A stretch of DNA of 4,340 nucleotides, from the IMG/VR virus record IMGVR_UViG_2526164693_000022, one strand, 5' to 3'. Position numbers: made by a program. The first letter of the stretch is position 1; every line of letters starts with the position of its first letter. Source of the DNA: a virus. Taxonomy: Duplodnaviria > Heunggongvirae > Uroviricota > Caudoviricetes. Positions 1 through 3,000 of the stretch are shown piece after piece.

Positions 1-3000
1 TTACTCCTCAGGTTCGTAAGCTGTGAAGACAGCGACCTCCGTCTGGCCGGTTCGGATTCGTACCTCGCAGAGGTCTTTCCTCGTTACCAGTGCCGTCACT
101 ATGACGGTTAAACAGATGACGATCAGGGCGATTAACATCGCCTTTTGCTGCTTCATAACCTGCTTCTCCTTGCCTTTCGGCGCGTAAGAGGCTAACCTAC
201 GTTTGTGAAGCATAGATTGGGCCTCAGATTAATGTTAAGCGTCTTGCAGGACGCGTAATGTTAACTGGGGCTTTTCTCTGTCTGCCTTACGGTGGCATGC
301 CCGAGGCAGACAGCCTCAAGCACCCGCAGCAATTCTACTTAACTCTCGCTTTACAGCAAACCGTTTTGCCCGATATGGGAATTCCCATACGGAATGAATT
401 CAGTTCCCCAGGCGCTCCATCAAAAACACAACCAGGCAGTAAACACCCACAACAGCAATAACAGCCAGAGCGCCTTCCATTACCAGTGAAATATCATCCG
501 ACATATTCCCTCCCTTGGTGTGAATCCCGGCGAACGTTTTTACCCCCACCGACAAATAACATATACTAGAAAAGCAATAGCTATAGCAACGCCTGCAAAT
601 GCATCTGGCCGGCTCATTGGTTCTCCCCCTGTGTCGCTTCTACTGCGATCTGACTGGCGTATTCGTTAATGGTAACGATAAGTTCTTGCTCGGCCTCATC
701 CAGACAACTACCGATACCTCGCCTGTCCACTTCAGAAGCATCGAAATCTGCACGAAGCCTGGCGACCTTCAGGATTGCGGACAACACCTCATCAGGGATT
801 GCCGGAGAGTTGGTTGACGTTTCCGAGATTATCCGAAAATTATTGGTTGACGAACCCTTATTTTCCCGAAAGTTTCCAGCCTGAAGCATGGCGGCGCGGT
901 GACACCAGATAATCCAGCCAAGCGCCATATCCCATACCATGTAATCTCTATCGCCATTTTTTGCTCTGCGGCGATCTACAGATTCTCCGAAACGCTTCTC
1001 CATAAATAATTCATAGGCTGCTCGTTCATCCGATACTGCTGCCAGTGATGCCAGCGCAATCCGTGCCAGCTCTTCCGCTTCTTCTGCTGGAAGCACAACG
1101 TTGCTACCCGGTCCGTATGTTTCGCGCCAATGCTGGATTGTCAGCAGTCGATCTTTGGTAATAGTGGTCATAGCTATTTCACCTTAATCTCAACATTTCG
1201 CAGCTTTAGCTCTACTGGCATGTCTGACTTTCCTGTTAATGCTAATGCGAGATTTTCTGGAGTAATGAGAGCAGTTATTGTTTTCCCCATCGCCAGACGA
1301 ATAATCATTCGTATTTCGCGATCGTCACATGCTCCTGGTCGAACAATTGATATTTGTCCGTTCATCTCACTCTCCTTTGATGCGAATGCCAGCGACGCGT
1401 AATGCGTGTTCTAGGTCAATCAGGTAAAGCCAACTGCCATTTTCTTTAGGTATCATGACATGTCGCTCATCTGCATTTATCGGGTGTCCATATCGAAGGT
1501 CGTAGCGAGTCGGTAATTGAACTTCCCGCGCTTCCAGTTCAGCAATACGCTTGCTCCCATCAGAGATAACGCCTTCGTAATACTCACGCTGCTCGTTGAG
1601 TTGTGATTTTGCTTCTTCCAGTCCATCCAGCAAATCAGCGATAATATCCGCTTCCCGATGACGGATGTGACGCTTAAACGCAGCAAGAGCCGCATCACAA
1701 TCCCGTTCAGCATTTGGGCTGTCCGGGGTAGCCTGATACCACGCCAGCGTCGATTGATAGTTTTGTGCTGCCTCACGCAGTGCCTGATAGTCAATCTTGC
1801 CCACTGGCTGCCTCCTTTGCCGGGATTTCTAACTTTTGAGTGGTTGTATCAAATTCAAACAACTTAACCACGTCATCAAACAGGACATAATCACCATCAG
1901 GATCTTCAGTCATATCAGCGCCACAATCCTGACCGCACGAGTCGCAACCTCCCATATCAAGCTCGTATCGCTTCAGGTTCGCGATATTTGATAAATTCAG
2001 CGCCAGTATAGCCAGATCATTAACCTCGTCTGCGATATACCCTGCACCATGTCCATACATTTCAATGCGGGATATGATTTCTTCTACACGTTGTTTTGTG
2101 ATCGTCATTTTTCTCTTCACTCCGATATACAAGGATTACTACACCCCCTCTGCTGATTGCGCGAGCTGGATCCCCTGGTTCCATGCCGTCAATTCCGAAG
2201 GCTTCGAAAAATGCATCCATTGCCTTCTGGCGTTGCTCCTGCTTACGGCGTTTATTCCATTTTTTCATGAACAACAGTGACAGCCATCGTCCGCTGCAGA
2301 ACATGATGTAGAAATAACCAAGGAGCGCTAGGCCGGTGTTCAGGGCTGTATCGATCGTTATCGTGGTGTTGATGTTCACTTCACACCTCTCTGTTTGTTG
2401 ATAAGTTCAATATCCTGCTGGCAACTGGCGCAAGCTCTGCATCCACGAACAGCCAGGCGTCGCCGCTCATCTATCGGATCGCCACACTCGCAACAATGAG
2501 TAGCAGATGGGGCATTACTATCGGATTTGTATTTTTGCAGGGAGAGATTGCGCTGCAATTCTTCGATTTCAGCGGCGTTGTCGATGATATCTGCCATTTT
2601 CCTTTCCTTCAGGCATGAAAAAAGGAGCCGAAGCTCCTTTGGTTTTAGAATTCGAATTGCCTTGCCCGCAGGCTTTTCAGCATTGGTCTGGCCCGCTGAA
2701 CTACGAAACTCGACTGGTCAAGCCGTGCCGCCTCTCTCAGTAGCACATCTCTGTTCTTCGTCACCATGTAGATGGTCTCAAACGCAATGTCATACAGCTT
2801 GTTCGTGTATGAGGAGTTCAGCTCTTTCATGATCGGATACAGGTGTTTGCTGAGGTCCTGGGCTTTTTCCATCCAGAGTTGCATGTAGCAGAGGAGGATG
2901 ATTTCCTCGTCTGTGAATTGTTGCTGTGGTTCTGCTTGTGCCGACTGCATGTTGCGAAGTTTCTTTTCGCACTCGATGAAGTATCTGCGTATCTGTCGGC

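Follow-up and report, generated by a model that had tools for sequence, protein, structure and literature searches.

The locus raises the question of whether a short zinc-finger gene near the end of a Shiga-toxin (Stx) prophage is a working member of the TraR family, and of how a gene that lies behind an antirepressor gene and a hairpin might be expressed. The window, by which we mean the whole stretch of 4,340 nucleotides that was analysed, covers the right end of an Stx prophage that is integrated in wrbA. The gene and its immediate surroundings are as follows.

2062..2379, minus strand: DUF4752 gene (open reading frame list; Pfam DUF4752 at 1.3e-39)
2376..2597 including the stop codon, minus strand: TraR-like coding sequence, 73 aa, C4 zinc finger (open reading frame list, Pfam, PHROG, identities)
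2601..2610, minus strand: purine-rich Shine-Dalgarno region, GAAGGAAAGG (read from the sequence; the ATG is at 2597-2595)
2618..2640, minus strand: terminator-like hairpin, AAAGGAGC-UUCG-GCUCCUUU plus U6 (folding; likeness to the lambda hairpin)
2645..3274, minus strand: ant, 209 aa, antirepressor family, directly upstream of the TraR-like gene (Pfam, PHROG 377)

A member of the TraR family

The open reading frame at 2376-2597 on the minus strand has an ATG start and 73 codons plus stop, and encodes MADIIDNAAEIEELQRNLSLQKYKSDSNAPSATHCCECGDPIDERRRLAVRGCRACASCQQDIELINKQRGVK. The sequence-only reading had described a 73-aa protein with a CxxC-N17-CxxC finger, and this is indeed what is found: the C4 motif is C35xxC38-N17-C56xxC59, and further cysteines at positions 36 and 53 bring the number to six. 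The N-terminus carries the DxxDxA tip (M-A-D3-I-I-D6-N-A8), and the protein has an ExxRL rather than an ExxRK motif.

The same reading had placed the protein in the TraR/DksA-like family, and this assignment is correct. The Pfam family PF01258 (zf-dskA_traR) is matched with an E-value of 1.5e-7 at 31.8 bits, above the gathering score of 24.9, and PHROG 54, “DksA-like zinc-finger protein”, which is also the annotation carried by proteins 100% identical to this one, covers residues 1-71 (E 5e-24). The NCBIfam model TIGR02419 (“C4_traR_proteo”) gives an E-value of 5.2e-14 and 52.6 bits, below its cut-off of 59.7, despite which the identical protein is named “TraR/DksA family transcriptional regulator” in RefSeq. 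A search of the structure database with the single sequence matched the TraR chains 5w1s and 6n57, and a profile of eight phage homologues, from whose building F TraR was left out, matched the F TraR chain 5w1s_M over its full length (1-70 against 1-72, E 1.5e-16). Sequence identity is 71% with lambda Orf73, 92% with L0141 of phage 933W, 100% with b37 of the Stx1 phage and 31% with F TraR; family membership is settled because of the 71% identity to the characterised lambda Orf73. Two other assignments do not fit: YbiI, whose equivalog model NF008243 gave 37.6 bits against a cut-off of 96, and DksA proper, which has about 150 residues and a coiled coil that the 73-aa protein lacks.

Which residues are kept can be seen from the alignment of homologues from lambda, 933W and Klebsiella, Salmonella, Mannheimia, Vibrio and Pseudomonas phages, in which C35, C38, C56 and C59 are invariant. 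The acidic tip, which had been left to be checked by alignment, is kept: D6 and A8 are invariant across the eight phage homologues and D3 aligns with D3 of F TraR. E44, R46 and R47 align with TraR E46, R48 and R49, and E64, invariant in the phage homologues, with TraR E66. The equivalent of TraR K50 is L48, and a leucine is also found at this position in lambda Orf73 (PMC8614690). Least conserved across the whole family is the stretch of residues 17-31, which runs from the distal half of the N-terminal helix into the start of the globular domain. A single-sequence AlphaFold2 model has helices at 6-24, 41-51 and 57-70, but its confidence is too low (pLDDT 58.5) to compare folds.

Purifying selection on the gene is clear from sequence comparison, with a dN/dS of 0.14 within the lineage of copies next to the att site and of 0.157 against lambda orf73, where dS is 1.4 and thus near saturation. 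With the protein as query, tblastn finds matches in 403 phage records, and in the index of the assembly collection the exact protein occurs in 8244 blocks. A chance reading frame with a fortuitous cysteine pattern, an idea for which the short length and nothing else speaks, is refuted by family E-values of 1e-7 to 1e-24, those 403 records and the evident selection.

A second Orf73-type gene at the prophage end

The TraR-like gene lies across the att site from int instead of in the exo-xis region, where such a gene is usually placed. In the circular Stx1 phage, exo, int, att, ant and the TraR-like gene follow one another on one strand. Directly upstream, as the sequence-only reading had it, stands ant, with the Pfam domains AntA (3.7e-27) and P22_AR_C (6.1e-9) and a match to PHROG 377, “anti-repressor Ant”, at 1.8e-98. 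The antirepressor of phi24B was considered as a comparison and rejected, being a different, P22-type Ant. Downstream, the GTG start of the DUF4752 gene overlaps the TraR-like stop codon (GTGA), a 4-nt overlap also annotated in VT2-Sakai and the Stx1 phage, which suggests translational coupling of the two genes. A mosaic junction falls at about 2104/2105, within the 3' end of the DUF4752 gene, and compared with 933W, VT2-Sakai and the Stx1 phage the window has a different gene module at 366-2104. An antirepressor-family gene is directly upstream at seven of the eight listed places of the exact protein, these places spanning different integration sites, and DUF4752 is directly downstream at all eight; in the viral contigs L018 and L125, too, an antirepressor-family gene is directly upstream.

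The gene is already known as an ordinary, annotated gene of Shiga-toxin prophages. Its equivalents are 933W L0141 (NP_049539.1), H0159 of VT2-Sakai/Sp5 (ECs_1250) and b37 of the Stx1-converting phage (NP_859157.1), at a matching locus that in all three contains ant, the TraR-like gene and Ea22-like genes, then hok/sok and the right end of the prophage. 933W L0141 has already been listed as a second Orf73 sequence (PMC8614690). Searching the literature by locus tag (ECs1250/1251, L0141/L0142) turned up nothing on how this copy is expressed or what it does. By itself the gene adds little: it is publicly annotated, a close homologue is biochemically characterised, and its 933W equivalent has already been noted in a published paper. 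In the Stx1 phage the canonical orf73 copy is b50, which lies in the exo-xis region and is 97% identical to lambda Orf73; since b50 is a separate gene, the gene in the window is a paralogue and not the exo-xis orthologue. What would count, at the margin, is that EHEC Stx prophages have two genes for RNA-polymerase modulators of the Orf73 type, the second of them a predicted one.

Between ant and the TraR-like gene, the sequence-only reading had placed a terminator. The hairpin proper (2621-2640, minus strand) begins four bases past the ant stop codon and has a UUCG loop, and its U-run reaches 2618, so that the element at 2618-2640 is terminator-like by folding. The free energy is -10.9 kcal/mol for the hairpin folded alone and -13.2 kcal/mol in the 41-nt segment 2600-2640. 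A consensus terminator scan of the window gave 4 sites where 4.4 were expected, which is no enrichment, and the hairpin was not among them, probably because the A-run on the 5' side of the stem can base-pair with the first three U of that tract; the fold of the whole segment around it is likewise without significance (z -0.29). In view of these two null results, the case for a terminator rests on the UUCG hairpin with its U6 and on the likeness to the hairpin plus U6 that precedes both lambda orf73 and the canonical copy of Stx phages by about 60 nt. The hairpin next to ant has an identical sequence in 933W and in the Stx1 phage, is kept in L018 and L125, where the 3' end of ant has diverged, and was the same in every relative fetched; for want of variation among these, covariation is uninformative. 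Dependence of the TraR-like gene on read-through, which had been suggested for it, appears plausible, but would not be special to it, because lambda orf73 sits behind a similar hairpin and U6 and is expressed early from pL (PMC9239242).

Could the second copy be silent or in decay, a duplicate left by recombination of the exo-xis with the att-proximal region that lies behind terminators while the canonical orf73 does the work? Stx phages of this type do have two copies, which in the Stx1 phage are b50, in the exo-xis region, and b37, at the present locus, and several of the phage records found by tblastn have two places; the annotated repeat “arrangements” c and e are common to both regions of the Stx1 phage, and 933W L0141 is chimeric, with parts of both Orf73 copies. 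There are also the hairpins upstream. Against it, the dN/dS values are low in both comparisons (0.14 and 0.16), the hallmark residues are all intact, there is a good Shine-Dalgarno sequence, and the stop codon still overlaps the start of the next gene. Moreover, the hairpin and gene are unchanged as a unit beside diverged ant genes, and the identical protein is present in the 8244 indexed blocks. We consider a silent duplicate unlikely, and a functional member of the TraR family, paralogous to lambda Orf73, highly probable.

The ant leader and expression of the gene

The region between ant and the host chromosome holds the remaining features.

3315..3403, minus strand: structured RNA of the sRNA-Xcc1 family in the ant leader (Rfam RF02221)
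3493..3522, minus strand: sigma-70-like promoter candidate, TTGACA-18-CATACT (scan, 10/12 matches)
3565..3611, minus strand: long stable hairpin, then UUUUCU (-27.9 kcal/mol, z -7.3; inverted repeat)
3808..3861, minus strand: first 18 codons of wrbA, the host gene cut by the prophage (translation; VT2-Sakai annotation of the split wrbA)
3812..3818, no strand: core of the prophage attachment site, attR side (VT2-Sakai and Stx1-phage annotation transferred via blastn coordinates)

Phage homology stops at 3824. The wrbA fragment is translated as MAKVLVLYYSMYGHIETM, followed by KH and a stop, and reads toward ant and the TraR-like gene. The hairpin at 3565-3611 is about 200 nt past the att core in the direction of int/wrbA transcription, a position similar to that of lambda tI/sib, and may be a terminator or an insulator. 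Resistance of long-stem terminators to antitermination has been demonstrated only in a Gram-positive conAn system (PMC10325885), and for this reason that work cannot decide whether an N-modified polymerase would pass the hairpin. The promoter candidate lies where the ant/TraR module begins on its upstream side, and homology with prophages at other integration sites starts exactly at 3522.

The block of ant and the TraR-like gene has a promoter-like site of its own and an sRNA-Xcc1-family RNA whose loop co-varies with the ribosome-binding site of ant, and this is an observation of more interest than the gene. The RNA scores 69.1 bits against RF02221 (gathering score 53, E 1e-11). The loop of its third hairpin is complementary to the Shine-Dalgarno region of ant at 3278-3291, and there is a second copy of the target at 3473-3486. 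Across 83 non-redundant viral loci, the duplex between loop and Shine-Dalgarno region has a mean energy of -17.9 kcal/mol for cognate pairs and -11.2 kcal/mol for non-cognate ones (Mann-Whitney p 2e-31). Between the window and viral locus L132 there is a triple compensatory change, in which the loop goes from CTTATTTG to CTTGTAAG and both targets from AACAAATAAG to AACTTACAAG.

This arrangement recalls the immI operon of phages P1 and P7, which consists of the c4 antisense RNA, icd and ant; the P1 c4 type involves processing by RNase P and translational repression with polarity. As in immI, a small structured RNA lies upstream of an antirepressor gene on a common strand, its loop is complementary to the downstream ribosome-binding region and to a second target copy upstream, and specificity variants alter all sites together. 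The c4-type features shared here are the upstream RNA, the loop complementary to the ribosome-binding region of ant and its co-variation with the targets. Unlike immI, the window has an RNA of the sRNA-Xcc1 family and no icd-like reading frame, and the operon runs on into the TraR-like gene; the Rfam search gave no match to the c4 family at E-values up to 0.1.

In the order that we propose, the TraR-like gene would come second among the cistrons of a self-contained module located at the prophage's right end, which would run from the promoter-like site through the sRNA-Xcc1-type RNA, ant and the hairpin-plus-U6 terminator to the TraR-like gene, DUF4752 and the Ea22-like genes. From this order, transcription of the TraR-like gene probably depends on control in the ant leader and on polymerase getting past the putative terminator. 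N-antiterminated pL transcripts that run through int and attP could also reach the gene when the phage genome is circular. Up to three hairpins (3565-3611, 3303-3325 and 2621-2640) and the anti-Shine-Dalgarno RNA lie upstream of it, and given these it may be expressed rarely. Control of ant by the SOS response is unsupported, since a search for LexA boxes (CTGT-N8-ACAG, one mismatch) gave two matches in the window, at or below the chance level, and none upstream of ant. An attenuator at 3436-3487, with alternative GCGG/CCGC hairpins, was rejected, as it folds no better than shuffled sequence (z -0.63).

We speculate, with more doubt than confidence, that the att-proximal Orf73 paralogue belongs to an RNA-gated, immI-like module independent of CI and made up of the promoter, the sRNA-Xcc1/c4-type antisense RNA, ant, the terminator and the TraR-like gene. 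If so, Stx prophages would release an antirepressor and a factor that reprograms RNA polymerase by a route separate from pL, the variable loop and target sequences would define specificity classes between co-resident prophages, and the replaced segment at residues 17-31 could give the paralogue another potency or promoter spectrum than canonical Orf73. The location of the gene with ant behind an RNA of antisense type suggests that the shutdown of host transcription during Stx-phage induction, a process that governs Shiga-toxin production, receives a second regulatory input.

Predicted function and comparison with known systems

The sequence hallmarks, the selection and the gene's position are observed directly; by analogy with lambda Orf73 and F TraR we infer binding of RNA polymerase and effects on promoters. 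Lambda Orf73, like four other homologues from phages, binds RNA polymerase, inhibits rrnB P1 and ribosomal-protein promoters and complements a dksA deletion, and substitutions in DxxDxA, a motif critical in both TraR and lambda Orf73, lower activity (PMC9239242). Proteins for which binding in the RNA-polymerase secondary channel and altered initiation at rRNA and ribosomal-protein promoters, both without ppGpp, are established are limited to F TraR, lambda Orf73, P2 Orf82, VHML Orf8, VP882 Orf61 and X. bovienii Gp34 (PMC9239242). Homology predicts that the 73-aa protein binds the host polymerase without binding DNA. Following the structural roles of the three TraR elements (PMC6970531), its N-terminal helix would enter the secondary channel and bring the DxxDxA tip (D3, D6, A8) beside the active site, the C4 zinc domain with E44 and R46/R47 would sit on the beta-prime rim helices and Si3, and the C-terminal helix would touch the beta lobe Si1. 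Promoters of rRNA and ribosomal-protein genes would be inhibited without ppGpp, and host resources diverted during phage development.

The sequence-only reading had gone further and taken TraR-like proteins to mimic DksA together with ppGpp. This is fully true of F TraR, which also activates amino-acid and tra promoters, but less so of lambda Orf73: it inhibits rRNA and ribosomal-protein promoters as well as TraR does, while its activation of thrABC, argI and rpoH P3 is weak if present at all (PMC9239242). Because lambda Orf73 shares the six-cysteine pattern and ExxRL with the 73-aa protein and barely activates, inhibition is the better-supported prediction by this analogy and activation is doubtful.

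A different possibility is that the fold has been retargeted, so that the protein acts chiefly together with Ant, with the phage repressor or with some other partner and not as a general inhibitor of initiation. The differences from lambda Orf73 at 12 of the 15 residues of the 17-31 segment, the recurrent antirepressor-family neighbour (7/8 listed places, as well as L018 and L125) and the presumed control of the module by an ant-specific antisense-type RNA could be read in this way. The parts that are conserved, however, are those with which TraR contacts RNA polymerase (DxxDxA, E44, R46/R47, the C4 finger and E64), and since the 17-31 segment is the least conserved family-wide, its variation is the norm and not a sign of a new function. 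Retargeting thus seems very improbable, and we retain the reading as an Orf73-type modulator of RNA polymerase.

The nearest characterised relative, lambda Orf73, also has 73 residues, the DxxDxA tip, six cysteines at matching positions, the two extra ones of which have been discussed for the lambda protein (PMC9239242), and ExxRL, and in both cases a hairpin with U6 lies upstream of the start codon. It differs at the 12 positions of segment 17-31, from which affinity or promoter selectivity could differ, and in six changed C-terminal residues; 933W L0141, unlike the 73-aa protein, has a lambda-type C-terminal third. The settings differ as well, lambda orf73 belonging to the pL operon in the exo-xis region, between orf61 and ea22, and the copy in the window lying across attP from int, downstream of ant and with the DUF4752 gene next downstream. 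F TraR (PDB 5W1S, 6N57 and related) is alike in length, probably in three-part architecture, and in D3/D6/A8, the C4-N17 finger, alignment over the full length and the equivalents of E46/R48/R49 and E66; it is unlike in its 31% identity, in lacking the two extra cysteines and in having K50 where the phage protein has leucine. With DksA and YbiI the protein shares the C4 zinc finger of PF01258, and with DksA the predicted secondary-channel mode of binding. The profile match to DksA (1tjl_A, E 4.5e-4) covers the finger and C-terminal part only. DksA has 151 residues, presents its acidic tip on a coiled coil and needs ppGpp, whereas the phage protein has 73 and, as predicted, a single N-terminal helix.

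The TraR-like protein and its relation to lambda Orf73

The ATG-started open reading frame at 2376-2597 on the minus strand has 73 codons, and its product, MADIIDNAAEIEELQRNLSLQKYKSDSNAPSATHCCECGDPIDERRRLAVRGCRACASCQQDIELINKQRGVK, carries the CxxC-N17-CxxC finger that the sequence-only reading had claimed for it, in the form of C35xxC38, 17 residues and C56xxC59, with two cysteines (C36 and C53) beyond the finger. The protein matches Pfam zf-dskA_traR at 31.8 bits (E 1.5e-7; gathering score 24.9) and, over almost its full length, PHROG 54, 'DksA-like zinc-finger protein' (E 5e-24); RefSeq names it a 'TraR/DksA family transcriptional regulator'. 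A PDB search with the single sequence matched YbiI, in the finger only, and the F TraR chains 5w1s/6n57, while a profile of eight phage homologues, built without F TraR, aligned with TraR at positions 1-70 versus 1-72 (E 1.5e-16). Judged by these scores, the family match is far above chance. The frame is under purifying selection, with dN/dS of 0.157 against lambda orf73 (dS about 1.4) and 0.139 against the 933W gene L0141.

As hallmarks we used those of PMC9239242 and PMC8614690, namely DxxDxA, the C4 finger, the rim-helix residues and the C-terminal E, and all of those named there are found in the 73-aa protein. The DxxDxA motif is present as D3, D6 and A8, meaning that the acidic tip residues, for which the earlier reading had proposed an alignment check, are kept; E44 and R46/R47 align with TraR E46 and R48/R49, and E64 of the C-terminal helix aligns with TraR E66. 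In the cryo-EM structure of TraR with RNA polymerase, TraR threads its N-terminal helix through the secondary channel, from the active site outward, and rests its globular domain on the beta-prime rim helices and its C-terminal helix on the beta lobe Si1 (PMC6970531). The TraR-like assignment is thus supported by Pfam, PHROG 54, the TraR profile alignment and the hallmarks together.

Lambda Orf73, to which the protein is 71% identical, binds RNA polymerase, inhibits rRNA and r-protein promoters with the efficiency of F TraR, both in vitro and in vivo, complements a dksA deletion, and slows host growth while raising phage yield about four-fold; it becomes less active when its DxxDxA motif is substituted (PMC9239242). 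The two proteins differ at 12 of the 15 positions in residues 17-31 and at six further positions in the last third. Since residues 17-31 are the least conserved segment across the family in the alignment of phage homologues, this variation appears ordinary and not the sign of a new function. Both proteins have six cysteines and both have ExxRL instead of ExxRK. Lambda Orf73 barely activates thrABC, argI and rpoH P3, and its authors suggest that the extra cysteines may explain this (PMC9239242). Because the cysteines and ExxRL are as in lambda Orf73, inhibition is the safer prediction for the function of the window protein: of the proposed mimicry of DksA plus ppGpp, the inhibitory part is backed by the likeness to Orf73, and full mimicry is less certain.

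ORF b37 of the Stx1-converting phage (NP_859157.1, 'DksA-like zinc-finger protein') encodes the same protein (100% identity), and L0141 of phage 933W is 92% identical. L0141 is a chimera in which residues 1-50 match the window protein exactly and residues 51-73 are of lambda type. The circular record of the Stx1 phage has two TraR-like genes on the same strand: b50, 97% identical to lambda Orf73, occupies the canonical exo-xis position, flanked by the orf61 homologue and an Ea22-like gene, and b37 lies downstream of the antirepressor-family gene ant, across the att site from int. Two matching places also occur in several phage records. The window gene is a paralogue of lambda Orf73, distinct from the canonical copy. 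The identity of the protein is not new, as the gene is already annotated and the presence of both orf73 and L0141 in 933W has been noted in print (PMC8614690).

Mosaic origin and gene layout of the window

Over positions 2105-4340 the window matches, at 99.6% identity, the right end of the VT2-Sakai (Sp5) prophage with its host flank, and over 1-365 it matches the VT2-Sakai hok/sok region at 92%. Between these two stretches, 366-2104 is a mosaic segment with a differing gene module (DUF551, Ea22-like, small ORFs), for which other O157 prophages have matching modules of the exo-xis type; its joining to Sp5-like flanks was not found in the complete E. coli genomes or phage records searched. On its right the segment joins the Sp5-like sequence at about 2104/2105, within the DUF4752 gene near its 3' end, which lengthens the product of that gene from 94 to 105 aa.

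Annotated features of the window (coordinates, strand, description)
1-213, minus: hok/mok toxin ORF (Pfam HOK_GEF, 3e-23)
151-325, minus according to Rfam: sok (Rfam match, 114.9 bits)
about 3812-3818: att core (annotation transfer from VT2-Sakai and Stx1 phage)
3861 down to 3808, minus: first 18 codons of wrbA, reading into the prophage
4167-4340: ymdF (annotation transfer)

The VT2-Sakai annotation puts sokW, at the equivalent of about 205-275, on the plus strand, against the minus strand given by Rfam. Inward from the host junction, the minus strand carries ant (2645-3274), the TraR-like gene, DUF4752, a 113-aa ORF, the Ea22-like ORF, a 63-aa ORF, a 185-aa ORF and then hok/mok. The prophage cuts wrbA after codon 18, leaving the fusion MAKVLVLYYSMYGHIETM-KH-stop at 3799-3861 (minus). 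Between a long hairpin (3565-3611) and the att core, 3637-3692 on the plus strand holds two tandem 25-nt units with four TTGGGGCA copies in all, which are likely to be integrase arm-type or accessory-protein binding sites of attP.

Possible transcription into the TraR-like gene

A hairpin, AAAGGAGC-UUCG-GCUCCUUU, lies at 2621-2640, four bases after the ant stop, with a U-run extending to 2618; on its 3' side come a purine-rich Shine-Dalgarno region and the ATG of the TraR-like gene. The arrangement that had been read from the sequence, an antirepressor gene and then a terminator-like hairpin directly upstream of the TraR-like gene, is therefore borne out. Folded alone the hairpin gives -10.9 kcal/mol. 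It was not called in a generic terminator scan of the window, in which terminator-like sites were not enriched. It is identical in all relatives compared, and in the viral contigs L018 and L125 it stays unchanged, together with the TraR-like gene, beside an ant whose 3' end has diverged. Lambda orf73 has a similar hairpin, GGGAGC-UACA-GGCUCC followed by U6 (L003 3165-3205, minus; -10.2 kcal/mol), about 60 nt upstream, as does the canonical Stx-phage copy (L002 14575-14615, minus), so a terminator ahead of orf73-type genes appears to be shared. These counterparts, and the constancy of the hairpin beside a diverged ant, support it as a real feature.

A terminator before an orf73-type gene is compatible with expression, because lambda Orf73 is made from pL, where transcription is N-antiterminated. 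This expression is early (PMC9239242). Such a terminator would tie expression to modified polymerase or to leaky read-through, and dependence of the TraR-like gene on read-through is plausible, if unproven. In the circular Stx1-phage record a single strand carries every gene from exo, by way of xis, int and att, to ant and the TraR-like gene, so that N-modified pL transcripts could reach the TraR-like gene after excision or infection. Host read-in would be a second source, since the cut in wrbA leaves its promoter region pointing into the prophage, toward ant and the TraR-like gene. A hairpin at 3565-3611 (minus) stands between wrbA and ant, with a stem of 17-22 bp, -27.9 kcal/mol (z -7.3) and UUUUCU following; it lies about 200 nt past the att core for polymerase coming from int or wrbA, a position like that of lambda tI/sib, and may be a terminator or insulator shielding ant from the host wrbA promoter.

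A third possibility is a promoter of the module's own. The top promoter-like site in the window in a promoter scan is TTGACA-18-CATACT at 3522-3493 (minus), and in three prophages integrated at other loci (L132, L134 and L138) homology to the window starts exactly at 3522, as expected if a self-contained ant/TraR module begins with its own promoter. The stretch 3493-3522 thus marks the upstream edge of a portable module with a candidate promoter that would drive it. We favour the module's own candidate promoter as the probable driver, with pL read-through as an added input.

A candidate antisense RNA in the ant leader

Rfam RF02221 (sRNA-Xcc1) matches 3315-3403 on the minus strand with 69.1 bits (E 1e-11; cut-off 53 bits), which places the RNA 41 nt upstream of where ant begins. 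Its third hairpin has a loop complementary to the Shine-Dalgarno region of ant (3278-3291) and to a same-sequence copy at 3473-3486. A scan of viral contigs for the conserved core gave 97 non-redundant instances, 83 with a callable downstream ORF. At these 83 loci the loop pairs with its own downstream ribosome-binding region at a mean duplex energy of -17.9 kcal/mol, compared with -11.2 kcal/mol for those of other loci (Mann-Whitney p 2e-31, somewhat inflated by kinship among some loci). The downstream ORF matches the window Ant (AntA type) in 21 of the 83; among ten representatives of the ORFs not matching the window Ant profile, Pfam found antirepressor-type N-terminal domains (Bro-N, KilA-N, Rha, P22_AR_N) in seven and no match in three. 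The cleanest evidence for co-variation of loop and target is a concerted triple change between the window and L132 (3094-3335), which are about 95% identical here: both targets change from AACAAATAAG to AACTTACAAG and the loop from CTTATTTG to CTTGTAAG.

Between the end of the RNA element and the ant Shine-Dalgarno region there is also a 9-bp hairpin, ACCGCCAG(C)...(A)CUGGCGGU, at 3303-3325 (minus). The 56-nt segment holding it folds at -15.9 kcal/mol (z -3.0), and many viral loci have an equivalent hairpin after their sRNA-Xcc1 element; the hairpin may mark a 3' end or serve as a processing signal.

The literature describes sRNA-Xcc1 as a Xanthomonas integron sRNA, and one preprint reports it ahead of an ORF6N gene in APSE phages; the literature searched yielded no paper that connects it with antirepressor control. 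With its loop and ribosome-binding region co-varying, the sRNA-Xcc1-family RNA of the window module looks like a c4-type antisense regulator of antirepressors, as in phage P1. If such pairing masks the translation of ant, the TraR-like gene behind it would be gated by the same switch together with the terminator. The c4-icd-ant immunity operon of phages P1 and P7 follows the same logic, with an antisense RNA acting on ant.
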